Shown: positions 6,329 to 64,000, counted from the stretch's first letter. The stretch: DNA of 64,000 nt from Nitrospirota bacterium (GCA_016195565.1 JACPZK010000004.1:4003-68002); one strand, 5' to 3'. Program-made: numbers and translations. Notes: a model not told the origin generated them from the sequence alone.

Positions 6329-7558
6329 ATGAGAGAAAATTCGGGATGGATAAAAATGTTTTCCGTGATTAAGGATAAAATCACCACCGGGTTCTCCGTA
6401 TTCTGGCACTCAGTTAAATCTTTTATTAAAAACGATAATTCTTCTGCGGCTGCCTCGCTTGCTTATTACTCGCTTTTCGCGTTGATTCCGCTGCTGCTCT
6501 TGCTGTTTTTTGCTCTCAGTTTCTTTATAACATCCTCCAAGGCTATTATGCAAAAGCTTACCATACTCATCAGCCAGTTTATTCCTTATTACAGCGAGAC
6601 CATACTTAATGAGGTTTACACACTGGCAAGGCATAAGGGCATGTGGAAGATAATAAGCCTGGTGGCGCTTCTGTGGATGTTAATGCCGCTGATGAGCGCT
6701 CTGAGAACTGTATTTTATAATATTTTTAAGGTTGAAAAAAGACCGTCTTTTTTGAAGACTAATATTCTGGATCTCAGCGTAATACTGCTTACATTGTCTC
6801 TTCTTGTTGTTGTCAGTTTCTCAAATGTGGCGTTTAAGAGATTTCTTGTTCTTGGCGGCAGCACACTCCCTTACGATATTGCATCTTACCTCCTTACTGC
6901 TGCTGTAATATCAATATTTTACCTTGTTTTCATACCCGTAAGGGTTCCATTCTCATATATATTTGCGGGCTCAGTGCTTACAACATTGCTGTGGGGGATA
7001 ATCAGGCCGTTATTCGGTCTTCTGCTTACGTATAACCCTCAGTACGGTATCACCTTCGGCTCATTAAAGGCGCTGTTTATCATTATTATATGGATATATT
7101 ACTCGTTCAGCGTGCTTCTCTTCGGAACAGAACTAATCGCCAATCTAAGGAGAAAAGACGTTCTGCTGCTGCGCGGGCTGTTTTATGAAACACAGACTGA
7201 CAGGAGAACACAAAAGCTTAAAAGAAAGTTCGGGCGGGATTATAAAGCAGGAGAGATTATATTTGAGGAAGGAGAAAAAGGCAGCGAGATGTTTTATATT
7301 CTCTCCGGCAGTGTGAGGCTGATTAAAAAAGAGCAGACGCTGAGAATTATGCGGAAGGGTGAATACTTCGGAGAGATGGCGCTATTAATCGGGACCTCGA
7401 GGACGACAAGCGCACGGGCAGAGGAGGACAACACTTCTCTTGCCGTTATAACCCCTGAGAACTTTGAAATGCTTCTAAGGGAAGAGCCGAAGATAGCGAT
7501 TTCATTTTTAAAGGAACTTGCTCACAGGCTTAAGAAGACAAATGAAATTCTGCAGTAA
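6329..7558 (+). CDS. YihY/BrkB-family membrane protein fused to a C-terminal cyclic-nucleotide-binding domain
   Basis: Multi-TM N-terminal region typical of YihY/BrkB. The C-terminal ~120 aa carry a cNMP-binding signature (EGEKGSEMFYILSGSV...GEYFGEMALL). The start may instead be the internal ATG near 6356. Confidence 0.65.
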   Translation: MRENSGWIKMFSVIKDKITTGFSVFWHSVKSFIKNDNSSAAASLAYYSLFALIPLLLLLFFALSFFITSSKAIMQKLTILISQFIPYYSETILNEVYTLARHKGMWKIISLVALLWMLMPLMSALRTVFYNIFKVEKRPSFLKTNILDLSVILLTLSLLVVVSFSNVAFKRFLVLGGSTLPYDIASYLLTAAVISIFYLVFIPVRVPFSYIFAGSVLTTLLWGIIRPLFGLLLTYNPQYGITFGSLKALFIIIIWIYYSFSVLLFGTELIANLRRKDVLLLRGLFYETQTDRRTQKLKRKFGRDYKAGEIIFEEGEKGSEMFYILSGSVRLIKKEQTLRIMRKGEYFGEMALLIGTSRTTSARAEEDNTSLAVITPENFEMLLREEPKIAISFLKELAHRLKKTNEILQ

Positions 7559-8491: not shown

Positions 8492-9661
8492 GTGGGCAGA
8501 AAAATGATAGCTGTATTCCTTTTCGTATTTATTTTTTATGTCTCTGTTAATATTGCCGAGTGTTTTGCTGAATTAGAATGCGTTGATGCAGAGGGCGAGG
8601 CTGTTATTGTGAACAACGATGTGCCGTCTGCAAAAGCAGAGGCAATAGCAAGGGCAAAATGGAGCGCGATAGAGCAGGCGGTGGGTGTTGAGGTTAAGGC
8701 GCAGAGCGTGGTTCAGAATATGACGCTTGTTGACGATGCTGTAAGCAAACAGATAAGAGGCGTTATCTCTGGCTTCAAAGAGCTTGCCAAAGAAACGCGG
8801 AAAGATACCTTTTGGGTCAGGATAAATGCATGTGTTGAACCTTTAAAGGCTCAGGATGCACTTATGTCATTAGCCCTGAATAATTCCTTAGTGGTTTTTA
8901 TTCCTGCAAGGAAACCAAAGGTCGTAAGCGAACATAGCAGCAAGCACAGCACTTCTCTTCAGACGGCTGATGAATATGATGAGACAAACATCCTTTCAGA
9001 AAAATTAATTGGAAAACTTATAGAGCAGGGCTATCAGGTTGTTGATGTGGCTCCAACTCATGCAATGGATGCCGCTGATATCGAAAAGGCGGTGAAGTCC
9101 GGGAATTATATGACAGTGAGGTCTTTGATGTATAAGTTTCTTTCAAATGTCCTGCTTATCGGGAAGATTGATTATACTATCTCAACAAAAAAGGGGGAGG
9201 ATATCGGTTATGGCATTTCCATGCCGTTTCACAATGTCACTGTCAGGCTTACTTACAGGCTGATTACCAGAGATAAGGCAGGCAAGAATATTATTCTTCA
9301 GGCAGGCGCTGAAGAAGCAAAGGGACTGGCAATGAGCGTGGAGGATGCAACTGAGAAGGGTTTGCAGGCGCTCCAGGAAAAGATCACCCCGATTGTGTTA
9401 GAAGCCCTGTCAAAGCACATTAAAGGCGCTTCAAAGAAAATATCCTTTACAGCAAAGGACGTATCAGATATAAGCGTGAATTTCCAGATAAAGGAGATAT
9501 TGCAGAACACCGCGTGGGTTACCTCAGTCGAGGAAAAGAAACTCGGGGAATTTCTGGTTGGTTATCCGGAAAATATAGTTTATCTTATAAACAGCCTTGT
9601 CCAGAAAGGATTCAGACTCACGAACTTTACTAATTTGTCTGTGACAATGGAATACAGGTAA
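8492..9661 (+). CDS. exported protein, N-terminal LPP20/FlgP-like region (tentative)
   Basis: GTG start 9 nt after GGGAGG. Signal peptide present. The pattern AEGEAVIVNNDVPSAKAEAIARAKWSAIEQAVGVEV resembles LPP20-type lipoprotein domains. Confidence 0.45.
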   Translation: MGRKMIAVFLFVFIFYVSVNIAECFAELECVDAEGEAVIVNNDVPSAKAEAIARAKWSAIEQAVGVEVKAQSVVQNMTLVDDAVSKQIRGVISGFKELAKETRKDTFWVRINACVEPLKAQDALMSLALNNSLVVFIPARKPKVVSEHSSKHSTSLQTADEYDETNILSEKLIGKLIEQGYQVVDVAPTHAMDAADIEKAVKSGNYMTVRSLMYKFLSNVLLIGKIDYTISTKKGEDIGYGISMPFHNVTVRLTYRLITRDKAGKNIILQAGAEEAKGLAMSVEDATEKGLQALQEKITPIVLEALSKHIKGASKKISFTAKDVSDISVNFQIKEILQNTAWVTSVEEKKLGEFLVGYPENIVYLINSLVQKGFRLTNFTNLSVTMEYR

Positions 9662-9702
9662 TTCATAAACTTACAGGCCTGATTTAATTAAGGGGGGATT
9701 GC

Positions 9703-10671
9703 ATGAGAAAAGTATTTATCAGTTTTCTGGTTGTTGCCATTATATGTATTAGTGCTTTTACATCCGAGGCGGCAAAGAAAAAAGTAGCGGTTCTGGATTT
9801 TGAGTACGGGACAATAAGGGACCGGTGGTGGCCCGGAGACTGGGATATAGGTAAAGGCATATCAGATATGATGGTAACGCAGCTTGTAAAAGACGGCACT
9901 TTTTCAGTGATAGAGAGAAAACAGATTGAAAAGGTAATCAGCGAGCAAAAACTCGGAGCCAGCGGCCTGGTTGATGTTTCAACTGCAGCTCAAATCGGTA
10001 AAATCCTTGGTGTTAAGTATGTGATTCTGGGAAGCATTACCCAGTTCGGCATTGATACTAAAAATATTGATACCGGCGGCTTTGGAAGGATGTTTGGGCT
10101 TGGAGCAGATGTAGGTGTATCAACTGCTGTTGCTACTGTATATATTGATGCAAGAATGATTGATACTACAACTGCTGAGATAGTTGCTGTAGCTGAGGGC
10201 AAGGCTTCGGAAAGCAAAAGCAATGTGAAAATTTTTGCAAGTGATCGGCATCGGGGATACGGCCACGTGGCAATCGGCAGTTCAGGATTTGATGGTACCA
10301 TTCTTGGACAGACCACGCGCAAGTGTGTAGAAGATGTAGTAAAGCAACTTTCAGGAAAGACGACCGGCGCGGGAACATCTGGAGGAGCAATAAAAACAAA
10401 GGTGGCTGATACTGATGCCGGGTCAAAGACAGTTTATATAGCCGCAGGCAGCGGCGAGGGGATAACAGTCGGCCAGACCTTGTATGTTGTTAAGGTAAAG
10501 AAAGAGATAAAGGATCCTGAAACAGGAGAGGTTATAAAAAGGGTGGTAGAGACAACGGCAGAGATGGAAGTGACCGAGGTTGACAATAAATCCGCAACTG
10601 CTACAATTGTAAAAGGAAACATAAATGACATAAAGATAGGAGACAATGTCAGTTCTACACCTTCACTTTAA
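9703..10671 (+). CDS. CsgG-family (curli assembly/transport component-like) exported protein
   Basis: Signal peptide. KKKVAVLDFEY..GKGISDMMVTQLVKDGTFSVIERKQIEKVISEQ..GVKYVILGSITQFG..GLGADVG..VYIDARMIDTTTAEIV matches the CsgG family pattern. An extra C-terminal beta-rich domain follows. Confidence 0.7.
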   Translation: MRKVFISFLVVAIICISAFTSEAAKKKVAVLDFEYGTIRDRWWPGDWDIGKGISDMMVTQLVKDGTFSVIERKQIEKVISEQKLGASGLVDVSTAAQIGKILGVKYVILGSITQFGIDTKNIDTGGFGRMFGLGADVGVSTAVATVYIDARMIDTTTAEIVAVAEGKASESKSNVKIFASDRHRGYGHVAIGSSGFDGTILGQTTRKCVEDVVKQLSGKTTGAGTSGGAIKTKVADTDAGSKTVYIAAGSGEGITVGQTLYVVKVKKEIKDPETGEVIKRVVETTAEMEVTEVDNKSATATIVKGNINDIKIGDNVSSTPSL

Positions 10672-54464: not shown

Positions 54465-55748
54465 ATGAGACTCTATAAACTGAGAAATGCAGTTCTAATA
54501 CTGATGATGTTTTTTGTATTATCTCTTCTTTTTGTTTCTTTAGGGTACGCTGCCTCAGATCCCTCTATTAATGATTGGGGCACTCCTCCAGGAACACCAC
54601 CGCCTTGGCAGACAACGGATATCTGGGTAGATAATAATGGAAACGGAATACCTAATGAAGTGGGTGAGCCCTCAAAAGGGATTAAGAACAGGCTCTTTGC
54701 AAAAGTCAGAAACCTGGGCACAACTGCAGCGAACAACGTCACGGTGAGATTTGCTTACGCACCCTATGGAGCTTGGGGATGGTCCTCATACTCTGATTTC
54801 AAAGAGATCGCTGTTGTGACAGGCGTTAATCTAACTCAATCTGGTACTCCAGATGCAGAGAAGACGATAGAAGTTGAATGGGACTTGAGGGATCTATCTG
54901 AAAACAATGGAGGGATATGGGGTGGTTACACAGTAGGAGACTTTGACCACTTTTGTGTTTGGGTAAAAATAGAGTATCCCGGAGACTCTGATACAACAAA
55001 CAACAAGGCCAGGAACAATTTCACAAATGTCCAAACCGTTTTTGGCAAATCTTATTCAATGAAGTTTCTTGTTAAAAATCCTGAAAATAAAGATGCAGGC
55101 GCTGAATTAATTATTAAGGGTATACCTGAGAACTGGAGGTTTGCGATAGAAGGAGTCAAAGACTACAGAAAATTTGTGCTAAAGGCAGGGGAGTTTAAAT
55201 TGCTTACATTAACATTTACTCCGCCACAACAGCCCATTTCTGCAACACAGATAAAGCAGAATGTGGATATTTCTCTTAAGTTAGACAACAAGATTATTGG
55301 GGGTATCTCATTTGTGGCAACTGTGGAGAAAGAAAAGCCTATGGCATTTACTCCATCCGGTGGGGTCTTGAGTCCTTATTTGATAGGGACATTTGATATG
55401 AGGGATGAAGCAAGAACTGTCCTCCATATCATTAATCCAACAGCAAAAAATCTCAGGTTTATGGTGGCATTTTTTGATGATAACGAGAAGCCCCTCAAAT
55501 GTATCCACGATAAGCTGAGCCCTAATGATTTGTCAGAGATAGATGTGCGCAGATATAAGCTTCCAGCAAAATTCGGTGTTGTGAAGGTTGTCTCATTAAA
55601 TGAAAAAGAAGACATGCCAGAATTAGGAATAGTCGGATACCAAAGGCATTTCTTTAAAGGAATAGGAGCTACTGAAACTATATTGCAGCCTATCCCGGCA
55701 GAGGTATTGAAGGATGACCTTAAGTACATCTGGAAGATATGTAAGTAG
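54465..55748 (+). CDS. exported protein with CARDB-like domain
   Basis: Strong RBS and signal peptide. TTDIWVDNNGNG..NRLFAKVRNLGTTAANNVTVRFAY resembles CARDB-type adhesion/Ig-like domains. Confidence 0.5.
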   Translation: MRLYKLRNAVLILMMFFVLSLLFVSLGYAASDPSINDWGTPPGTPPPWQTTDIWVDNNGNGIPNEVGEPSKGIKNRLFAKVRNLGTTAANNVTVRFAYAPYGAWGWSSYSDFKEIAVVTGVNLTQSGTPDAEKTIEVEWDLRDLSENNGGIWGGYTVGDFDHFCVWVKIEYPGDSDTTNNKARNNFTNVQTVFGKSYSMKFLVKNPENKDAGAELIIKGIPENWRFAIEGVKDYRKFVLKAGEFKLLTLTFTPPQQPISATQIKQNVDISLKLDNKIIGGISFVATVEKEKPMAFTPSGGVLSPYLIGTFDMRDEARTVLHIINPTAKNLRFMVAFFDDNEKPLKCIHDKLSPNDLSEIDVRRYKLPAKFGVVKVVSLNEKEDMPELGIVGYQRHFFKGIGATETILQPIPAEVLKDDLKYIWKICK

Positions 55749-55789
55749 ATAACATCTCTTAATAAAATAGACAAAAAAGGGGGGTTAAC

Positions 55790-57124
55790 ATGGCTACATT
55801 CAATATCCAAGGAAAGGTTATAAACAAAGTCACAAAGCTGAGTGTTCCATATGCAAGGGTGAAAGTCTACGAGATAGACAAAGTTACCGCAGGATATAAA
55901 AGCGACTTTTTGACAGAAGGATTAACGGATTTAAATGGTGTATTCAATATAACCTTTACATGGCCTTATGATATATCTATTCCTGGTAATCGTCCGGATA
56001 TTATCTTTAAGGTAATCCAAAAAATAGATGGAGTCGATAAGATTATCTACAATGAAAATCCAGCCGCGCAGACAAGATGGAACATTGGAGATATCCTTTC
56101 TGTCACATTAGAAGCAGAAGATTGTATATCTATTATCCCTACACCTTCAGGAAGACCTTATGACACTCTATTCGTCTTTACAAGAGTAGGGGTTATCGGG
56201 GTTAACACCATTCACACTGTTGGAGCAGGAGCCAGCGGCTATGCCTATCCTGATATCGATCCAGCAGCGCCAAACAGCAGGGATGCAAATTCACCGTTTG
56301 GGTCTACCCTCGATATCGCGGGATGGTTCGGTCAGTTTACTGACACTGTTCGTTATAAGATACAGTATTCATCCGATGGTGTCACCTTTACCGATATTTC
56401 CGATCCGCTTTACAACAGCTACTACGAGTTTGATCCGAGCGGTGGAAACTGGATAACTATAGCCATGGGGCCATTTACTGAGGGCGGTCAAACAAATGTG
56501 TATAAGATGCCTTATGTTGAAAACCCAGGACAGCCATGGATATTTCCTGACCTTATCGCAAAATGGGATACAACAAAGGTATTGGACGGGCTGTATACTT
56601 TAAGGATACAGGGATTTAAGTGGAATGTATCACATACCACGTTAGTACCTTCTGTTGCACTATTAATTGACCCAAGCTATGGCACCTTGAAGCTGAGGAT
56701 AGATAACTCTCCGCCTGTATCAAAGATAAACGCTGAGACTGGTATTAAATATAACGGGGCCATTAAAAAAGTCTGCGACATAGTAGATTTCACATCGGGG
56801 GCGCTGAGTATAGAATTTGAGGCCAGTGACAGCAAAGGCCATCTCAGGGAGTATGTGCTCAATGCCATGTATGGGCATAACAACGCTGTATCCCCTATCC
56901 CTGCTAATGGAGCAGATAACTATTCAAACCATATAGGTCCCAGCAGGCAGTGGAACGGTGGGACGTTTACTGTCAATTATGACACAACAACTTACACCCC
57001 AGCAAAGATGCCCACATGTGCCTATCAGTTTCGTTTGGGTGTGACCAAGAGAACAACGAATGGATACGGACTTATTTATCCATGGGTAGAGGATACAATT
57101 CACATCACACTAAAGAGGCCATAG
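55790..57124 (+). CDS. hypothetical protein with N-terminal transthyretin/carboxypeptidase-regulatory-like fold (tentative)
   Basis: MATFNIQGKVINKV..ARVKVYEIDK...NGVFNITF..RPDIIFKV. No obvious signal peptide. Confidence 0.4.
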   Translation: MATFNIQGKVINKVTKLSVPYARVKVYEIDKVTAGYKSDFLTEGLTDLNGVFNITFTWPYDISIPGNRPDIIFKVIQKIDGVDKIIYNENPAAQTRWNIGDILSVTLEAEDCISIIPTPSGRPYDTLFVFTRVGVIGVNTIHTVGAGASGYAYPDIDPAAPNSRDANSPFGSTLDIAGWFGQFTDTVRYKIQYSSDGVTFTDISDPLYNSYYEFDPSGGNWITIAMGPFTEGGQTNVYKMPYVENPGQPWIFPDLIAKWDTTKVLDGLYTLRIQGFKWNVSHTTLVPSVALLIDPSYGTLKLRIDNSPPVSKINAETGIKYNGAIKKVCDIVDFTSGALSIEFEASDSKGHLREYVLNAMYGHNNAVSPIPANGADNYSNHIGPSRQWNGGTFTVNYDTTTYTPAKMPTCAYQFRLGVTKRTTNGYGLIYPWVEDTIHITLKRP

Positions 57125-57138
57125 AAAGGAGAAATGGT

Positions 57139-57552
57139 ATGAAAAAAATGACGGGATTATCTCGCACCAGCATCAAATGGTTTGCTGTTATCATTGCCGT
57201 GCTTTGTTTGAGTCTGTTGGCTGGGACGGGTGTATTTGCAGAAAACAAGGAGCGGCCCTGCGCGGATGATGTGGCAAAGTTCTGCAAAGACGTCCAGCCG
57301 GGCGGAGAAGGCATAGCGAAATGTTTAAAGGAACATGCAAACGAATTATCACCCGGCTGCAAGGAAAACATTGCTGCAACAAAACAGAAGATGCAGGCTT
57401 TTTCTGAAACGTGTAAAAATGATATGTCGAAATTCTGCAAAGATGTCAAGCCCGGGGGTGGTCAGATCTTACAATGTCTCAAACAACATGAAAGTGAACT
57501 TTCCCCTGAATGCAAAGCCAATTTGCCGACTTCGCCAATCCTGAAACGGTAA
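57139..57552 (+). CDS. exported cysteine-rich repeat protein (2 repeats)
   Basis: ATG at 57139 after AAAGGAG. Signal peptide. Two copies of C-x6-FC-x-DV-x-PGG-x5-CLK-x-H-x3-LSP-x-C. Confidence 0.65.
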   Translation: MKKMTGLSRTSIKWFAVIIAVLCLSLLAGTGVFAENKERPCADDVAKFCKDVQPGGEGIAKCLKEHANELSPGCKENIAATKQKMQAFSETCKNDMSKFCKDVKPGGGQILQCLKQHESELSPECKANLPTSPILKR

Positions 57553-57568
57553 TCTGATTTGATAGGCA

Positions 57569-57682
57569 GGGAAAGGAATGTCAAAAAAAGCACCTGTCAT
57601 TTTTGACAGGTGACGATGAATCTCAGGATATGCTATAAGAAAGGATATCAACCCTTATTTTAAGGGTACATGAGATTCTTGA
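57569..57682 (+). repeat. 114-bp direct repeat, copy B
   Basis: See 54161-54274. Here the hairpin is perfect (CACCTGTCA-TTTT-TGACAGGTG, 57591-57612). Confidence 0.9.
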
Positions 57683-57711
57683 CAATAAATAAGCTTATAA
57701 AGGTTAGCTTA

Positions 57712-58598
57712 ATGGAGGAAGATATGAGAAACGCTGATGAAAGGCGAGGCATGGGATGGCTCCCTGATTATCCTGATTTTCGGGATTATACAGAGGAGCA
57801 TGAAAATGTTAGTAAGATTATTACAGCAACAGGGGTTACAAAAAAGGCCATAAGCCTCCCCTCATCTGCGGATCTAAGGGCATGGTGCTCGCCTGTAGAG
57901 GATCAGGGCTCTCTTGGTTCCTGCACTGCCAATGCAGGGGTCGGTATGGTGGAATATTATGAGAAGAGGGCATTCGGCAGATATATTGATGCCTCACGAC
58001 TTTTCCTGTATAAAGCAACAAGGAACCTTCTTCACTGGACAGGTGATACGGGTGCATTTCTAAGAAGCACAATGGGCGCACTGGTTTTGTTTGGAGTCCC
58101 GCCAGAAGAATACTGGCCTTATAAGATAGCTGATTTTGATAATGAACCGCCTGCATTCTGCTACGCCTTTGCACAAAACTACCAGACCGTAAAATATTAC
58201 AGGCATGACCCACCTGCAACACCAAAGGATCTCTTATTAAACCGTATAAAAACCTACTTGCAGCAGGCCACCCCTCCATGTTTGGTTTTACAGTGTATAG
58301 TTCAATTGCACAGGCAGGCACGACAGGAAAAATCCCATATCCATGCAAAGGGGAAAAGATAGAGGGCGGGCATGCCATTGTTGCAGTCGGCTATGACGAT
58401 AAGATGAAGATTAAAAACACAGGACTGTGTGGAGTGGAGACAACTGGAGCGCTTCTCATAAGAAACTCCTGGGGCATGGGATGGGGAGACGCCGGCTACG
58501 GCTGGCTGCCTTATGAATATATCCTTAAAGGCCTTGCCGAAGACTTCTGGTCAGTATTGAAGAAGGAGTGGGTGGATACGGGGGAGTTTAAGGCGTAA
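57712..58598 (+). pseudogene. papain-family (C1) cysteine peptidase split by a -1 frameshift
   Basis: ORF 57670..58362 carries GWLPDYPDFRDY and the Gln/Cys motif VEDQGSLGSCTANAG. ORF 58278..58598 carries GGHAIVAVGYDD (His) and IRNSWG (Asn). The frames rejoin as IKTYL|AAGHPSMFGF if one nt is restored near 58260. Confidence 0.8.
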
Positions 58599-58641: not shown

Positions 58642-59439
58642 ATGGAGATTATAATTCCAAGAAAGCATTTTGCTAAAGTGAAATTACTATTCTTGCTTTT
58701 GGCATGTGGAATCTTACTTTTAGCGAGAGCAGATTTCTCTTATGCAGTTACTAAGACAACAGTTGAGGAATTTTCTATTCCACTGCCGGGGCTAAAGCCG
58801 CAAGGTATTACATGGGATGGGAAACACCTCTGGGTTGTAGATGGAGAGACAAAAAAGGTTTATCGTTTGGATCCCCGTTCAGGCGCTATTCTTCAAACAT
58901 TCGCTGTAGATCTGAAAAAGCCTAAAGGTTTAGCCTTCGATGGAAAATCTATATGGGTTGCCGATGAAGAAACCATGAAAATTCATGCACTCGATCCTCA
59001 GAGCGGCCAAATCGTGAAAACCATACCGATGGAGATTTCTAAGGAAAAAGGTTTTAAATCCTTTGAGGGTATGACCTGGGATGGGAAGCATCTCTGGACA
59101 GCCATTTACGCTGGATTTTCGAGTTCCTTTAATCAAATAGATACAGAAAGTGGTCGGATTGTAAAGAGCATTTTTGCCGAATGTAACCCTCGGGGAATTG
59201 CATCAGATGGAAAATATATCTGGAGCATCTGCTATAACGGAGAAAATTTACCATCCAAGATTGATAAAAGGAAAATCCTTGAAAAAGAGCATGAGATGCT
59301 CCGTTCTCGCATGTTTATCAGAGATATCGAGGGAAGAGACCCCGTAGGACTGGCATACGATGGCAAGTATCTGTGGTATACAGACAGGCAATTAAAAAAG
59401 GCTTTTATGATTTACCCTGGAAATCTGGAAAAGAAATAA
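58642..59439 (+). CDS. exported beta-propeller repeat protein, glutaminyl-peptide cyclotransferase-like (tentative)
   Basis: Signal peptide. Five or so repeats of G(I/L/M)x(W/F/Y)DGK.(L/I)W..D...K.I..(L/I)DP.SG.I. The size (265 aa) and repeat style resemble bacterial/plant-type glutamine cyclotransferase propellers. Confidence 0.4.
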   Translation: MEIIIPRKHFAKVKLLFLLLACGILLLARADFSYAVTKTTVEEFSIPLPGLKPQGITWDGKHLWVVDGETKKVYRLDPRSGAILQTFAVDLKKPKGLAFDGKSIWVADEETMKIHALDPQSGQIVKTIPMEISKEKGFKSFEGMTWDGKHLWTAIYAGFSSSFNQIDTESGRIVKSIFAECNPRGIASDGKYIWSICYNGENLPSKIDKRKILEKEHEMLRSRMFIRDIEGRDPVGLAYDGKYLWYTDRQLKKAFMIYPGNLEKK

Positions 59440-59464
59440 CTAATCTTGAGAAAGGAGGCATGTC

Positions 59465-60319
59465 ATGGATAGGTTGATGAGAAACTTTATGCTTGGCATA
59501 ATAGGTCTATTTTTTGTTTTTTCTGTAGGGTGTGCCCAAAAATACGCAGTACTTATCAGTACAAATGAGGTAACTGCCGATGATACAGCTATTCATTCCG
59601 AATGGTGGTACGATTTAATTTTACAATACAAAATATTAAGAGAGAACGGCTTCAAAGACGACAAGATATATGTCCTTTATGGAAATGGGACTGATTTTGC
59701 TACTGCACATGCTGCCTACAATTCTACCACTCAGTTTGGTCATACAATTACAAATATGGCTGTCAATAAGGCCAATATCCAGTCTATATTCAATACCCTG
59801 AATGGTAAGGTTACGAGTAAGGATTATCTGTACGTATGGTGGATGGGTCATGGGGGAGGTTCCGGGCCGGGTTCCTGCAACCTCTCTATGTCTATCAGTA
59901 ATACAGGAGAGACAGTTACTGATACGGAACTGAGCACATATATTAATAATGTGTCAAATTATAAGAAGCGTTCGGTTGCTGTCATGACATGTCACTCTGG
60001 AGGAATGGTAGATAATATGAATACTGCGGGTAATAAAACTGTGGCCCTCACCTCTTCGACCTGCGCTCAAAACTCTTATGACGCTCCATCCACCTGCGAT
60101 GGTATTTTACATGCAGAATTTAATTACACATTGCCAAATGGTTTGCGTATGATAACTCCATGTGGTACAGCCGTTGGGTCGGACTACGATAGCAACGGTT
60201 ATGTATCATTATCAGAATCGTATCAATACAATACAGCAACTATGACTTCATCAACTCCCCAGATGGGTGATCCGGATAGCATTGCGACAACTACCTATAT
60301 CAAGAAAGATGAACCGTAG
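59465..60319 (+). CDS. legumain-like (peptidase C13 / clan CD) lipoprotein
   Basis: Lipobox (VFSVGC|AQ). KYAVLISTNE... His-Gly (YVWWMGHGGG) and Cys (VAVMTCHSGGM) in clan CD order. Confidence 0.55.
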   Translation: MDRLMRNFMLGIIGLFFVFSVGCAQKYAVLISTNEVTADDTAIHSEWWYDLILQYKILRENGFKDDKIYVLYGNGTDFATAHAAYNSTTQFGHTITNMAVNKANIQSIFNTLNGKVTSKDYLYVWWMGHGGGSGPGSCNLSMSISNTGETVTDTELSTYINNVSNYKKRSVAVMTCHSGGMVDNMNTAGNKTVALTSSTCAQNSYDAPSTCDGILHAEFNYTLPNGLRMITPCGTAVGSDYDSNGYVSLSESYQYNTATMTSSTPQMGDPDSIATTTYIKKDEP

Positions 60320-60388
60320 ATGATGATATGGCAGGAGATGCAGGCTATGTGACTGCCTTATGAATATGGATGAAAGGAGGTGATATTC

Positions 60389-60574
60389 ATGCCTAAAGGT
60401 GAAAAACCGACGTACAAAATTGCAAAGTACGACAGAGCTAATAAGTGTTCGTGTGATTGTGAATGTCAATTACCGGTTACCGTTACTGTCCTCTATAGCG
60501 GGAAAATAAGAACTCCAAAAGGTCTGTCAACTTTAAAAGCAGAGACGCCGGACATTACGATCTTAAGCGAGTAG
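60389..60574 (+). CDS. 61-aa Cys-rich peptide, candidate RiPP precursor
   Basis: AAAGGAGG lies 8 nt before the ATG. MPKGEKPTYKIAKYDRANKCSCDCECQLPVTVTVLYSGKIRTPKGLSTLKAETPDITILSE. The CSCDCEC patch is at 60446-60466. The stop lies 64 nt upstream of a radical SAM/SPASM gene carrying an RRE-like domain. Confidence 0.55.
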   Translation: MPKGEKPTYKIAKYDRANKCSCDCECQLPVTVTVLYSGKIRTPKGLSTLKAETPDITILSE

Positions 60575-60638
60575 TTGCAGAGGTCTGAGAGGGGCCTGAT
60601 TCCAGATCCCCTTTTAGACAAATAGGAGGATTTTGAGA

Positions 60639-61955
60639 ATGGAATCATTATTGTTACGCCGCGAGCCGTTCGGTGGAGTATTAGCGGAGCGAGAAGGAAC
60701 AAAAGTAAAGTTTCTTAATCACACAGGGTTTGAAATAACCTATGGGATTGCCAACGGCTGGTCGGAAGATGAAATAATCAATCACATCAAATCAAAATTC
60801 GATGTATCAAATATGCCTTTAGTCAAAAACGACATCAAAAAATTTCGCAGGATGGTCTCGAATATAAAAGATTGGGATTCCGGTGAAAGCCTTTGGAAAG
60901 ACCCGTCAGAAAATAAGGAATCCTCTCCTATTCCGGCACTATCCGCACCATTGGATTTATACTGGGAAGTTACCAAGCGATGCAATCTTTACTGTCGTCA
61001 TTGTTATAACGAATCAGGCAGTAGAGATTATGAGCCGAGCATGGAACAGATGCGTTCTGTCGTAAATGAGCTAAGTTCAACAAAACTGAGAAGCATTGCG
61101 ATATCGGGCGGTGAACCTTTGATGCGGAAAGACTTGCGGACGATTATCGGATGGCTTCGTCCCCTGGCGACAAATCTTGTATTAGCCACTAACGGAACTT
61201 TGATAGACGAACAGAGCGTTGCATGGATGGGAGAAATGATCAATGAAGTAAATTTAAGCCTAGACGCAGGCAATAAATCAGCATACGAACAATTTAGAGG
61301 TCGAAGGGGAACCTTTGATAAATGTCTTCGAGGACTGGATCTTTTAGTAGAACAAAAAGTCCCTGTTATAATCCAGACTACTATATCCAGATTCAACATA
61401 GATTCTCTCAAAGAGATTGCAACTTTGGCAATAGAGAGAGGCGCTACGGCCTGGATTGTACGGCTGCCCGTGTTCAGTGGTAGGGCTGCCCGAAATGAAG
61501 GTGATTTTCTCAGCCGGAATGAATTAATTGAAAAAGAGCCGCTCCTGTCCGAAATCAGATTACAATACCAATCAAAATTCGCAGACTTACAATTGGGGGT
61601 CAACTTCATGTGGAGTTATCAGGAACCTTATACTTATGTTCAGATAGAGGACAGGGCGATATCATGTTCCGCAGGAACTGTGGGCGTGCTTTTGACTGCA
61701 GAGGGTACATTAGCGCCTTGTCCCTTATTTTCGGGGACGGACTTCAAGTCCGACGCAGTCTGGAATGGTAACTTTCTTAAAGAATGGAAAACGGCTCGAT
61801 GCATGCAGACTATGCGCTCCCTTCGTTTAAATCAGATTGGGCAATGTTTCCATTGCGCACACTTCAAAGTAAAATGCAGCGCTGGATGCAGGGCCAAGTC
61901 TTATTTGAGTGGAGATTTATATTCAACAGATCCAGACTGCGGTTACTTGAACTAA
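60639..61955 (+). CDS. radical SAM/SPASM peptide-maturase-like enzyme with N-terminal PqqD-like (RRE) domain
   Basis: N-terminus RREPFGGVLAEREGTKVKFLNHTGFEI..GWSEDEIINHI is PqqD/RRE-like. CNLYCRHCY is the CX3CX2C motif. SPASM: CSAGTVGVLLTAEGTLAPC ... CFHCAHFKVKCSAGC. Confidence 0.85.
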   Translation: MESLLLRREPFGGVLAEREGTKVKFLNHTGFEITYGIANGWSEDEIINHIKSKFDVSNMPLVKNDIKKFRRMVSNIKDWDSGESLWKDPSENKESSPIPALSAPLDLYWEVTKRCNLYCRHCYNESGSRDYEPSMEQMRSVVNELSSTKLRSIAISGGEPLMRKDLRTIIGWLRPLATNLVLATNGTLIDEQSVAWMGEMINEVNLSLDAGNKSAYEQFRGRRGTFDKCLRGLDLLVEQKVPVIIQTTISRFNIDSLKEIATLAIERGATAWIVRLPVFSGRAARNEGDFLSRNELIEKEPLLSEIRLQYQSKFADLQLGVNFMWSYQEPYTYVQIEDRAISCSAGTVGVLLTAEGTLAPCPLFSGTDFKSDAVWNGNFLKEWKTARCMQTMRSLRLNQIGQCFHCAHFKVKCSAGCRAKSYLSGDLYSTDPDCGYLN

Positions 61956-62025
61956 AGACAATTTAAAAGGGCGATTAATCGACTATGAGCCAAAAAATAG
62001 GAACAGCGACCATTAATAAGAAACT

Positions 62026-62090
62026 GCCCGAACCGGCAGATAACAGAGTGCTTGAGTTTAACTCAAAGGCTACGCCCTTCTCAAACATTC
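62026..62090 (+). repeat. conserved hairpin repeat downstream of radical SAM gene 1 (copy 1)
   Basis: GCCCGAACCGGCAGATAACAGAGTGCTTGAGTTTAAC...CTCAAACATTC. Arms at 62045-62056 and 62080-62090 (one G-U, one mismatch). Homologous to 63923-63989. Confidence 0.8.
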
Positions 62091-62207
62091 GAACCGTTGT
62101 TGCAATTGGGGGCAGAGAGGGAGGAGGTGATAAATTTATTCCGTTATGGCGCTTTTTTGCTGTGTCATGAAGTAATCTGAATCAATTTGATTTCAAAGGA
62201 GGGCAAC

Positions 62208-62792
62208 ATGCAAAAAGATATACAGAAAAAGAAATGGACATCTCCCAAGAACGTTTATCGGACAAAATGGACAACGCGGTTAGATGCAAAAGTATCGGCT
62301 TCACCGGGAAAGCGGGTTGAAGTTAATCCATTAAAAGTTCTCCACCGCTTTGATGGAGGAATGGTATACGAGAGTGCCGGTAGAAAATTCTTGCTTACTG
62401 AAAACATTTTTGGTTCTTATCCCTTTCTCTTAGTTTTTGAGCTATCGGGAAAGGAAATTGAGGTAGAATCAACTTCTTTTCATGCCGTGCCAGAACGCAT
62501 GCTTAAAAGTATCGCGCCAGCGTGCGAAAAAATAGCCCTTAGCGCTAAGCTACCCGAATCTTTGCATAATGTGGAAGTGGACATAACGCCCATGTTAAGC
62601 CAAGTCGTCAAGCTGCCAAGTGGTGTGGAATTATCAAAAGCTATCCTGAAGCTTGGCAAAGGGCCTGAGGTGGCATGTGACTGCGATGTGGATGGGCCTT
62701 GCGGGTACTGCTGTGACACGTGCGATTGTGATACATGCAAGATTGAGGATATCGGAATAGATCCTATGGAAATAGTGATCAGGGGGCGATAG
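62208..62792 (+). CDS. 194-aa protein with C-terminal Cys/Asp-rich patch, candidate long-leader precursor or substrate
   Basis: ATG at 62208 after AAGGAGGG. The C-terminus reads ...EVACDCDVDGPCGYCCDTCDCDTCKIEDIGIDPMEIVIRGR, with 8 Cys and 6 Asp in 21 residues (62676-62738). The stop overlaps the GTG start of the next radical SAM gene. Confidence 0.55.
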   Translation: MQKDIQKKKWTSPKNVYRTKWTTRLDAKVSASPGKRVEVNPLKVLHRFDGGMVYESAGRKFLLTENIFGSYPFLLVFELSGKEIEVESTSFHAVPERMLKSIAPACEKIALSAKLPESLHNVEVDITPMLSQVVKLPSGVELSKAILKLGKGPEVACDCDVDGPCGYCCDTCDCDTCKIEDIGIDPMEIVIRGR

Positions 62793-63886
62793 TGGTCGAC
62801 TCATTGTTGACAGCGTCAGTACCAAACAAGCTCACTGTAATTTTGACACATAGATGCAATCAACGATGCGAGTTCTGTTTTGATGCATCTAATGTGATGT
62901 GCGCATCGAGAGGGGCCGATATGTCAATTGGGACAATGGAATGTATCGTAAAAATGTTGCGAAATTCTCTCCCTGAAAACATGCCATTCAATATCACCCT
63001 TTCCGGTGGAGAACCCACGCTTCATCCAAAGTTCCTAACTATGGTTGAAATTGTATCAGATGCCGGCTTCCCAGTGACCATTTTGACAAATGGTCAGCGC
63101 CTTGCCGATGTGAGCTTTATGAAAAAGGTGATGAAATTCAACCTATGGAACTTTCAATTTTCAATTGAAGGTGCTTCATCGGAGATTCATGACAAGAGGG
63201 TCGGTTGTAGAGGGGCATTCAAACGAACTGTTAAAGCTATCGAGAATGCGCGTGATTTTGGGGTTCGTTTTATCACAAATAGCACGATGACTAAGGCCTC
63301 TGTGAGAGAAATGTATTCTCTTATCGATTTTCTTGATCACCTTGGTGTCCCCAAAATGAACATCGGTAATACTCTTCCCGAATGTGCTGGTCACAACTGG
63401 GCTGTTATGATGCAGTATCCCACAGTTGTTGATATTGCAGAACATCTTACATTGTACGCGCTCACTAAACGAATCAGTTTTTCCTTCATAACGCCTTTAC
63501 CGATATGCCTAAAGGACAAACGTATAATTAGCAATCCATCCGTATGCTCAGCTGGAAGGGTTTCCATTGTGGCGGATGCTGACGGGACTCTGCGCCCTTG
63601 TTCTGTCTGTACCTCTGCAAAAGATGAAGCGCTTCGTATTCAGGATGTCAAAGATCTTAAGGAGATTTATCGCCGAATGGATTCAATAGTCTCGGATTTT
63701 GTCAAGATCGACATCCCGGATGAATGCCGAAAATGCGAGCGCATGAGTGAGTGCCGTGCAGCATGCCCTCTATATTGGAAGGCTAAAGGTGTGGCGCGAC
63801 CATCTCAGTGGTGTCAAGACACATCGGTTCTTGCATGTGAATATGATTCCCAAATGCCACAAAGTGCCGGACAATATTGCACTTGA
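62792..63886 (+). CDS. radical SAM/SPASM peptide-maturase-like enzyme (no N-terminal RRE)
   Basis: GTG start overlapping the upstream stop (taGTG). CNQRCEFCF is the CX3CX2C motif. SPASM: CSAGRVSIVADADGTLRPCSVC ... CRKCERMSECRAAC. Confidence 0.85.
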   Translation: MVDSLLTASVPNKLTVILTHRCNQRCEFCFDASNVMCASRGADMSIGTMECIVKMLRNSLPENMPFNITLSGGEPTLHPKFLTMVEIVSDAGFPVTILTNGQRLADVSFMKKVMKFNLWNFQFSIEGASSEIHDKRVGCRGAFKRTVKAIENARDFGVRFITNSTMTKASVREMYSLIDFLDHLGVPKMNIGNTLPECAGHNWAVMMQYPTVVDIAEHLTLYALTKRISFSFITPLPICLKDKRIISNPSVCSAGRVSIVADADGTLRPCSVCTSAKDEALRIQDVKDLKEIYRRMDSIVSDFVKIDIPDECRKCERMSECRAACPLYWKAKGVARPSQWCQDTSVLACEYDSQMPQSAGQYCT

Positions 63887-63922
63887 ACCTGAAGAGCGTG
63901 AAGAGGAGTCTAACAAAATAGT

Positions 63923-63989
63923 GCCCCAACGGCAGATAACAGAGTGCTTGAGTTTAACACCCAAAGGCTTAGCCCTTCTCAAGCACTCT
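63923..63989 (+). repeat. conserved hairpin repeat downstream of radical SAM gene 2 (copy 2)
   Basis: Perfect 12-bp stem AGAGTGCTTGAG (63941-63952) / CTCAAGCACTCT (63978-63989) with a 25-nt loop. Homologous to 62026-62090. Confidence 0.85.
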
Positions 63990-64000
63990 AAACGTTAGCC

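Follow-up and report, generated by a model that had tools for sequence, protein, structure and literature searches.

Near the end of a 64,000-nucleotide stretch of a groundwater Nitrospirota metagenome-assembled genome (MAG; GCA_016195565.1 JACPZK010000004.1:4003-68002), which was analysed at its full length and is called the window here, we found two gene pairs that each encode a protein with a cysteine-rich segment and a radical S-adenosylmethionine (SAM)/SPASM enzyme (GenBank MBI3376990-992). The first pair, module 1, is a conserved two-gene cassette present across Nitrospirota, alphaproteobacteria, a Firmicutes-like genome, archaea, and untyped contigs. The second, module 2, is a separate conserved pair of a substrate-type protein and an enzyme. 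In both pairs, the evidence speaks well for a relation of substrate to maturase, and the probable products are cross-linked peptides. With moderate confidence, we propose that these are two independent substrate-maturase cassettes, in which module 1 would install hairpin thioethers in the manner of StsB, and module 2 would cross-link the tail of its protein.

Module 1 is conserved as a pair of peptide and enzyme genes

The genes of module 1 and the domains of its enzyme are located in the window as follows.

60389-60574, + strand: module 1 precursor (peptide 1), 61 aa, from open reading frame (ORF) and ribosome-binding site (RBS) calls; TAG at 60572-60574
60639-61955, + strand: module 1 maturase (enzyme 1), 438 aa, with RiPP recognition element (RRE; RiPP, ribosomally made peptide with post-translational modifications), radical SAM, and SPASM domains
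60639-60863, + strand: RRE of enzyme 1, residues 1-75, from AlphaFold2 (AF2) topology and full-length profile alignment
60981-61004, + strand: radical SAM motif CX3CX2C of enzyme 1 (C115/C119/C122), from the family alignment
61665-61940, + strand: full SPASM domain of enzyme 1 (C343...C434), from the family alignment

The ATG of peptide 1 is preceded by an RBS, AAGGAGGTG, 8 nt on its 5' side, residues 20-26 of the peptide read CSCDCEC, and 64 nt separate its TAG from the ATG of enzyme 1. ORF calls therefore agreed with the initial annotation of this DNA, made from the sequence alone, on the 61-aa ORF, its strong RBS, the cysteine patch, and the gap before the enzyme gene.

The pairing recurs in other genomes. 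All 13 distinct enzyme 1 loci for which upstream sequence was available carry a homologous ORF of 58-75 aa directly upstream on the same strand. Loci with the upstream peptide are the window, its sister L084, L086-L090, L004 (an alphaproteobacterial MAG), L164, L165, L166 (Rhodoplanes), L167, L168, and L169. L164 appears to be Firmicutes-like because it adjoins SpoIIR, and L165 and L168 appear to be archaeal because they lie among MCM, Spt4, eIF2-gamma, S24e/S27e, and S13/S4/S11 genes. In Rhodoplanes tepidamans, the enzyme is WP_272775364.1 and the peptide WP_272775365.1. The survey of neighbourhoods that the initial annotation had called for thus found adjacent Cys-rich ORFs in every locus of this kind, as it did in 6 of 6 loci for module 2 (see below). 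In the alignment-based genome and metagenome scans with enzyme 1, true family members were only L004 and L084-L090; most hits were generic SPASM enzymes, and all those outside the family served as negative controls.

A hidden Markov model (HMM) of the peptide 1 family, built from an alignment of 16 peptides, matched enzyme 1-family loci only, among 30,544 ORFs from 175 loci. Nothing significant was found in about 155 other radical SAM/SPASM loci, where the best E value was 3.9. As background, CxCxC was present in 0.39% of the 26,196 short ORFs counted across 1.78 Mb of retrieved loci. When peptide 1 was compared by phmmer with 1.84 billion representatives, four true small peptides were recovered. 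Large multi-stretch matches were rejected as DxDxD low-complexity repeats; the DVDIDI-repeat proteins P0191, P0192, P0194, P0196, and P0197, for instance, match peptide 1 by composition, DxDxD mimicking CxDxE. No other neighbouring gene was common to the enzyme 1 family loci, and no protease or exporter was conserved with either cassette.

Two observations concern the archaeal contigs. In L165 (7650-9350) and L168 (7646-9350), module 1 sits among core archaeal informational genes, including those for ribosomal proteins and TiaS. In L168, gene calling overlooked the peptide in favour of a 74-aa ORF on the other strand.

Enzyme 1 belongs to a distinct family with a fused RRE

The initial annotation had assigned to enzyme 1 a CX3CX2C motif, a full set of SPASM cysteines, and an N-terminal RRE, and all three assignments held. 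Across 30 family sequences, C115/C119/C122 of CX3CX2C are invariant, and so are seven SPASM cysteines (C343, C361, C403, C406, C413, C417, and C434); the N-terminus is conserved as LRREPFGG...FLN. The AF2 model (predicted local distance difference test, pLDDT, 91; predicted template-modelling score, pTM, 0.90) has the topology of an RRE, three strands and then three helices, in residues 1-75 (pLDDT 85-96). The Pfam PqqD model gave no match to enzyme 1. The best fold matches were SuiB (template-modelling score 0.70 over the full length), CteB, and SkfB, and the family profile aligned with SuiB over residues 3-433 and end to end also with CteB. Pfam found Radical_SAM and Fer4_12 in both enzyme 1 and the enzyme of module 2 (enzyme 2). 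The GenBank entry of enzyme 1, MBI3376990.1, is named 'radical SAM protein'.

Relatives of enzyme 1 fall into about 47 full-length clusters with E values under 1e-67, and a gap separates them from the generic SPASM proteins at about 1e-42; here and below, the clusters counted are defined at 90% identity, in a database of 5.8 billion clusters. Each enzyme matched dozens of NCBIfam radical SAM/SPASM models, all far under the curated cut-offs. The MftC model, among the best NCBIfam matches of both, gave 136.8 bits for enzyme 1 and 79 bits for enzyme 2 (cut-off 265), and the StsB model NF045574 gave 89.5 and 67.1 bits, respectively (cut-off 625). Matches in PADLOC were to the generic viperin core only, and were set aside.

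These scores bear on the simplest alternative, that chance small ORFs lie next to ordinary enzymes of cofactor biosynthesis (NirJ, AhbD, PqqE, MoaA) or an anaerobic sulfatase-maturing enzyme (anSME). The top raw NCBIfam scores of enzyme 1 are indeed to NirJ2 (148.5 bits) and AhbD (146 bits), but the cut-off of each is 500, and matches of the NirJ/AhbD type begin only at about residue 108, leaving out the RRE. The PqqE model (96.6 bits, cut-off 381) and the MoaA model (84 bits, cut-off 284) also stayed far below their cut-offs, and anSME was a weak match in the PDB (E = 1.7e-12). Scans of the window found no heme d1, pyrroloquinoline quinone (PQQ), or molybdenum cofactor (Moco) genes adjacent to module 1 or 2, and the peptide ORFs are conserved at the protein level across phyla and domains. 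We consider this alternative effectively refuted, and the HMM comparison did not place either enzyme in a non-peptide family, which the initial annotation had named as grounds for refutation.

The peptide 1 family combines a CxCxC motif with a Val-rich strand

In the window, the core of peptide 1 reads C20-S-C22-D-C24-E-C26, followed by a loop, QLP, and by V30-T-V32-T-V34-L-Y36 (nt 60446-60496). It is preceded by a conserved segment, KPxYKIAK, which we regard as a putative leader strand, and followed by a C-terminal part with the motif PDITILSE. The alignment of 16 peptides showed an invariant C-x-C-x-C, a 3-residue loop, and V-(T/S/N)-V-x-(V/Y), together with an N-terminal strand, (K)xYx(I/V)A, and a C-terminal motif, I-x-(V/I)-(L/I), within a conserved extension of 25-35 aa. 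The V-x-V-x-V strand is as conserved as CxCxC. The fourth cysteine of the core is limited to the clade of the window, and the number of cysteines showed no clear covariation with the downstream strand in this family. Peptide 1 had no match in Pfam or NCBIfam, and no named NCBI entry was found for its exact sequence.

The initial annotation had described cores that alternate Cys with acidic residues, and had proposed thioethers from Cys to the side chains of Asp or Glu. The alternation is real in both cores of the window, and the Asp residues of module 2 are invariant or nearly so; in the module 1 family, the acidic residues vary. Positions between the cysteines are occupied by S, D, E, T, A, G, or Q, as in the homologous cores CDCSC, CTCSC, CSCSC, CQCSC, CACGC, and CGCGC, the last four of which hold no acidic residue. 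Because of this variation, the Cys-Asp/Glu idea is unsupported for module 1, and a thioether ladder in an StsA-like hairpin, proposed by analogy, fits better. For module 2, a Cys-Asp linkage may be formed, because its Asp residues are invariant.

The residues near the catalytic site of enzyme 1 were compared with those of characterised enzymes. Six such positions have been described, at F112, F152, T186, S210, H363, and Q364 of CteB (PMC10288494), and we mapped them onto 30 members of the enzyme 1 family through the alignment with CteB. The residues found in the family, and those in StsB, SkfB, CteB (PMC10288494), SuiB, and PqqE, are given below by position.

Position 1: enzyme 1 family Y (29/30); StsB Y; SkfB Y; CteB F; SuiB F; PqqE S
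Position 2: enzyme 1 family S or T (30/30); StsB T; SkfB T; CteB F; SuiB L; PqqE S
Position 3: enzyme 1 family A, S, G or C; StsB I; SkfB F; CteB T; SuiB T; PqqE I
Position 4: enzyme 1 family S (30/30); StsB S; SkfB S; CteB S; SuiB S; PqqE S
Position 5: enzyme 1 family P, A or S; StsB K; SkfB Q; CteB H; SuiB I; PqqE H
Position 6: enzyme 1 family L, I or V; StsB L; SkfB L; CteB Q; SuiB A; PqqE A

As these residues show, the enzyme 1 family shares Y-[ST]-x-S-x-L with StsB and SkfB, and four of the six positions agree in this comparison, which is limited to the five enzymes listed. By these residues, enzyme 1 resembles the sactisynthases StsB and SkfB rather than the ranthisynthase CteB, which is a lead and not a proof.

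The same comparison weighs on a reading close to that of the initial annotation, in which both enzymes would be ranthisynthase-like and would join Cys sulfur to the beta or gamma carbons of the interleaved Asp and Glu. It draws on the alternation of Cys with D or E in both cores of the window, on the (near-)invariant Asp residues of module 2, on the 'CD' dyads that survive in a divergent module 2 core (L173), and on weak matches to the PapB model NF047865 (76.7 and 69.6 bits). These matches are, however, far below the cut-off of 340, as are those to the SCIFF model TIGR03974 (65.3 bits, cut-off 425) and to QhpD-type models below theirs. In most module 1 homologues, S, T, A, G, or Q stands between the cysteines, and the proximity residues of enzyme 1 are not CteB-like. 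We consider this reading unlikely.

A nested hairpin ladder is proposed for module 1

The closest analogue of the peptide 1 core was found in StsA, whose core, CxCxCx4GxGxG, receives nested sactionines from StsB (Cys2-Gly15, Cys4-Gly13, and Cys6-Gly11; PMC10288494). The paper on StsA and StsB was, survey supplements aside, the sole literature match for CxCxC cores in a radical SAM context, and none turned up for GPCGYCC. With a 3-residue loop, C26/V30, C24/V32, C22/V34, and C20/Y36 of peptide 1 would be cross-strand neighbours in a hairpin. The CxCxC-x3-VxVx(V/Y) pattern of the 16 peptides is compatible with, though no proof of, a hairpin with an N-terminal donor strand and a C-terminal acceptor strand.

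By analogy with StsB, we take a nested thioether hairpin as the best model for module 1. The 61-aa peptide would be translated from its own strongly initiated ORF, and its conserved N-terminal strand would dock on the RRE of enzyme 1. The radical SAM cluster would then generate a 5'-deoxyadenosyl radical for hydrogen abstraction from the V-x-V-x-V(/Y) strand, and Cys thiolates, handled by the auxiliary clusters of the SPASM domain, would capture the carbon radicals. Three nested thioethers would result, or four in the clade of the window (C26-V30, C24-V32, C22-V34, and C20-Y36, in a register possibly shifted by one residue). Such bridges would lock the peptide into a beta-hairpin 'ladder', as StsB does with the CxCxC...GxGxG of StsA. 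Because no protease or exporter is conserved with the cassette, the cross-linked product may remain as it is, a small protein of about 6 kDa.

The conserved valines allow another reading, in which enzyme 1 would modify Val or another residue, by forming cyclopropylglycine as TvgB/TigE do, by epimerisation, or by a C-C cross-link, and CxCxC would serve as a metal or docking site. The strong conservation of V-x-V-x-V suits it, the TigE structure 8vpo was among the PDB matches, and PMC10878394 describes radical SAM/SPASM enzymes acting on Val. The TigE match was, however, much weaker than those to SuiB, SkfB, and CteB, peptide 1 holds no repeat of the TVGG type, and the multi-Cys motifs characterised as substrates of RRE-SPASM enzymes are thioether donors (PMC10288494). 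Modification of this kind seems distinctly improbable to us.

Several points count against the StsB-like ladder of module 1 and the cross-linked tail of module 2. The thioether chemistry is drawn from analogy, and by the NCBIfam cut-offs the enzymes lie outside the StsB, PapB, and SCIFF families. Peptide 1 could be a small folded beta-protein in which the conserved Val residues make up the hydrophobic face. In sactipeptides, the acceptor residues can vary, which makes the register proposed here uncertain. The proximity residues were set beside those of StsB, SkfB, CteB, SuiB, and PqqE only. For module 2, a near-invariant core, 1:1 coupling of the genes, and the lack of a conserved protease or exporter are atypical of secreted RiPPs, and match a role in metal binding, or one like that of a cofactor, no less well.

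One further element lies between the two genes of module 1.

60583-60619, + strand: stem-loop with a 12-bp stem between the peptide 1 and enzyme 1 genes; -22.1 kcal/mol, z = -2.1

It is possibly a transcript-stabilising or attenuating hairpin. Of 12 family loci, 9 have a strong hairpin of unrelated sequence behind the stop codon of the peptide, and 3 have peptide and enzyme genes that overlap or lie no more than 8 nt apart. Rfam returned nothing in 59000-64000.

Module 2 pairs a folded protein bearing a Cys/Asp tail with an RRE-less enzyme

Module 2 consists of two genes bracketed by a repeat.

62025-62099, + strand: left copy of a repeat of about 75 nt that bounds module 2; inverted repeat AGAGTGCTTGAG / CTCAAaCAtTCg, with the 3' arm decayed
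62208-62792, + strand: module 2 precursor or partner protein, 194 aa; MBI3376991.1, 'hypothetical protein'
62792-63886, + strand: module 2 enzyme (enzyme 2), 364 aa, radical SAM/SPASM; MBI3376992.1
63922-64000, + strand: right copy of the repeat; inverted repeat of 12 bp intact; runs past the end of the window

The TAG of the 194-aa ORF overlaps the GTG of enzyme 2 by 1 nt in TAGTG, an arrangement of translational coupling. Enzyme 2 has an invariant CX3CX2C (C22/C26/C29) and the canonical SPASM cysteines, C252-x12-G-x4-C270...C312-x2-C315-x5-C321-x3-C325, plus C239, and the Pfam SPASM model scored below threshold on it (16.9 against 21.5 bits). Coupling of the 194-aa ORF to a second radical SAM/SPASM gene, as first annotated, is thus confirmed. 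At 21% identity, enzyme 2 is no more than a distant paralog of its counterpart in module 1, and it has no RRE.

The 194-aa protein ends in ACDCDVDGPCGYCCDTCDCDTC plus 17 residues. A folded alpha/beta domain is predicted for residues 35-152 (pLDDT above 90), and residues 154-194 are predicted to be disordered. Within this tail lies a near-invariant core, A156-CDCDVDGPCGYCCDTCDCDTC-177 (nt 62676-62738). Although members share 36-97% overall identity, (A)CDCDVDGPCGYCCDTCDC is invariant or nearly so, including D158, D160, D162, D170, and D173; the divergent core of L173 differs, yet keeps the 'CD' dyads. In the initial annotation, both cores were said to be followed by a tail. This is correct for the window; the 17-aa tail of module 2 is specific to its clade, and most of the precursors end at CNSCY(L/N)CC. 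The protein had no match in Pfam or NCBIfam, and its domain had no Foldseek match in PDB or BFVD. We also considered the domain as an RRE, and discarded the idea because profile comparison with RREs gave a probability of 0.3%.

The earlier suggestion that the two peptides are undescribed accordingly held, as neither is claimed by a Pfam or NCBIfam family. By 'undescribed' we mean that the families are uncurated in Pfam and NCBIfam 20.0 and uncharacterised, rather than never listed; the statement does not extend to the supplements of radical SAM RiPP surveys or to the six new groups of PMC10288494.

Relatives of the precursor fall into 26 clusters and those of enzyme 2 into about 34, with at least 9 clusters on common contigs. 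The genes are adjacent 1:1 in 6 of 6 distinct loci, and mostly overlap. Their neighbours, which are otherwise unrelated, resemble mobile elements, with a type IV secretion system and relaxase, PRTRC, toxin-antitoxin, AbiEii, and extracellular contractile injection system (eCIS) genes. AhpC/thioredoxin-like genes lie near module 2 in two loci, and a Cus/Czc-type resistance-nodulation-division (RND) pump in one. No relatives of module 2 were found in IMG/VR. In L170, a 182-aa lipoprotein-like ORF (9392-9940) with a Cys-rich C-terminus, CTCDASKCPCGCVPTWSGSNFVCPCYACYGGCITNC, lies directly downstream of module 2, and a 419-aa AhpC/thioredoxin-like gene follows it.

In our proposal, enzyme 2 would be made 1:1 with its partner through translational coupling, would recognise the globular domain of the 194-aa protein without an RRE, and would cross-link the disordered Cys/Asp tail, by Cys-to-Asp or possibly other thioethers. 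A rival view is that module 2 is not a natural-product system at all, and that the tail binds a metal or Fe-S cluster, or becomes a protein-derived redox cofactor, giving a function in metal or redox stress that travels on mobile elements. The near-invariant core in otherwise diverging proteins, the globular domain with its conserved translational coupling, the mobile contexts with their AhpC/thioredoxin-like genes and RND pump, and the lack of a conserved protease, exporter, or immunity gene all accord with this view. On the other hand, characterised SPASM enzymes beside Cys-rich C-terminal tails cross-link peptides, disorder is predicted for the tail, and Pfam and NCBIfam scans found no metal-handling domain. 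We regard a metal or cofactor role as possible but doubtful, and keep the cross-linked tail as the preferred reading.

The two modules are independent

The initial annotation had joined the two modules into one tandem locus. This view had to be abandoned, because the two families were never found together elsewhere in the searches made, the sister locus L084 carries module 1 without module 2, and direct repeats flank module 2. The two repeat copies bracket module 2 exactly in the window, and an exact 28-mer of the repeat occurs only at 62035-62062 and 63931-63958. In L084, whose enzyme 1 is 94% identical, enzyme 1 is followed by a single element of about 75 nt (approximately 7385-7460) with a 12-13-bp inverted repeat, and then by a C39_2/C70-like peptidase gene. 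The sequences that flank the pair of copies on the outside, left of the first and right of the second, both match L084; sequence past the end of the window was taken from L001. From the repeats and these flanks, it follows that module 2 is a 1.9-kb insertion, or was lost from L084 by recombination between repeats. Module 2 would thus behave as a horizontally moving cassette, present or absent between close strains through its flanking repeats.

The repeat element forms a hairpin of 12-13 bp (z of about -4 in L084), and the window holds only two copies. We considered an integron attC site, since the element ends ...GATAAC/GTTAGCC (TAAC...GTTAGCC), and rejected it for the poor match to core sites (5/7 and 6/7). 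In L172, a 300-nt direct repeat with 82% identity (6770-7069 and 10068-10367) brackets a copy of module 2 together with an AraC-type regulator. That repeat is a partial duplicate of a DUF932 gene in a mobile region with PRTRC, AbiEii, and zeta-toxin genes.

Neighbouring genes

The gene immediately upstream of module 1 encodes a candidate protease.

59465-60319, + strand: legumain-like (Peptidase_C13) protein upstream of module 1; also in L084, lacking in other family loci

This protein is possibly a processing protease, outside the conserved cassette. Altogether three cysteine-peptidase-like genes (C1, C13, and C39_2/C70-like) surround module 1 in the window and L084, and in no other family locus, and are thus particular to this Nitrospirota lineage; the C39_2/C70-like gene lies at 6452-7072 of L001, just beyond the end of the window. 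A gene for a beta-propeller protein (58642-59439), upstream of module 1, has the same distribution. The papain-family (C1) peptidase gene (57670-58598) is split by a frameshift into one ORF with the catalytic-Cys region QGSLGSC (57670-58362) and another with GGHAIVAVGYDD and a PF00112 match (58278-58598). Because the same 106-aa call occurs in three independent assemblies (L001-L003), the frameshift is not a sequencing error of a single assembly. Further upstream, before the peptidase genes, a series of genes for secreted proteins without known function (54465-57124) includes one for a 137-aa secreted protein (57139-57552) in which the Cys_rich_FGFR repeat (PF00839) occurs twice. Downstream, L001 has eight more ORFs with no Pfam or NCBIfam match.

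Comparison with known systems

Radical SAM/SPASM peptide maturases are a main source of new peptide chemistry. The two families described here are rare (about 47 and 34 clusters) and nameless, each with a clean conserved substrate, and they offer a lead for genome mining, in that the enzymes are of a known kind and both precursor families are new. As a named species, Rhodoplanes tepidamans makes module 1 directly testable. In module 2, a new globular leader-type domain is joined to a poly-Cys/Asp core of unusual invariance, all on mobile DNA, which raises the question of a selectable function. It is conceivable, if rather unlikely, that both are new classes, module 1 a bacterial and archaeal mini-protein with a Cys-to-Val ladder, whose frequent position among housekeeping genes would point to a function in the cell and not to an antibiotic, and module 2 a mobile cassette that turns the CDCDVDGPCGYCCDTCDC tail into a redox or metal cofactor.

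Among long-leader precursors, those of the NHLP and Nif11 types resemble the module 2 precursor, which likewise consists mostly of a conserved N-terminal domain followed by a short C-terminal core. Unlike theirs, its core is near-invariant rather than hypervariable, and its domain matches neither type in sequence or fold. VDGPCGY of module 2 may loosely recall IDGMCGVY, the ending of MftA. The invariant core of module 2 also recalls cofactor-type RiPPs such as mycofactocin. In contrast to MftA/MftC (TIGR03962), the MftC scores are below the cut-off, no mftB/D/E/F genes are neighbours, and the peptides lack a C-terminal Val-Tyr, ending in ...ILSE, ...IRGR, or, in relatives of module 2, ...CC.

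Module 1 is like the SCIFF pair CteA-CteB in being a minimal pair of a Cys-rich peptide and an RRE-radical SAM-SPASM enzyme with no dedicated protease or exporter, and enzyme 1 can be aligned with CteB from end to end. It differs in having no SCIFF motif and in proximity residues unlike those of CteB. Compared with the ranthipeptide systems PapA/PapB, QhpC/QhpD, and CteA/CteB, module 1 lacks conserved acidic or Thr acceptors.

The closest likeness is to StsA/StsB, and to BlaA/BlaB (Precord et al. 2023, NF045574). Both these systems and module 1 combine a CxCxC donor, a short loop, and an alternating pattern of the acceptor type with a radical SAM/SPASM maturase that uses an RRE. StsB resembles MftC by full-length similarity (PMC10288494), and enzyme 1 is likewise MftC- or heme-synthase-like over its full length. 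In contrast to StsA, where GxGxG follows after four residues, VxVx(V/Y) follows after three in module 1, and peptide 1 has its conserved C-terminal extension of 25-35 aa. The RRE is fused to enzyme 1, whereas StsC is discrete. The linkages of module 1 are putative, and its distribution, unlike that of StsA/StsB, includes archaea. If the proposed ladder is correct, the CxCxC hairpin idea drawn from StsA would, with module 1, take in a Val-rich acceptor strand and reach into the archaea.

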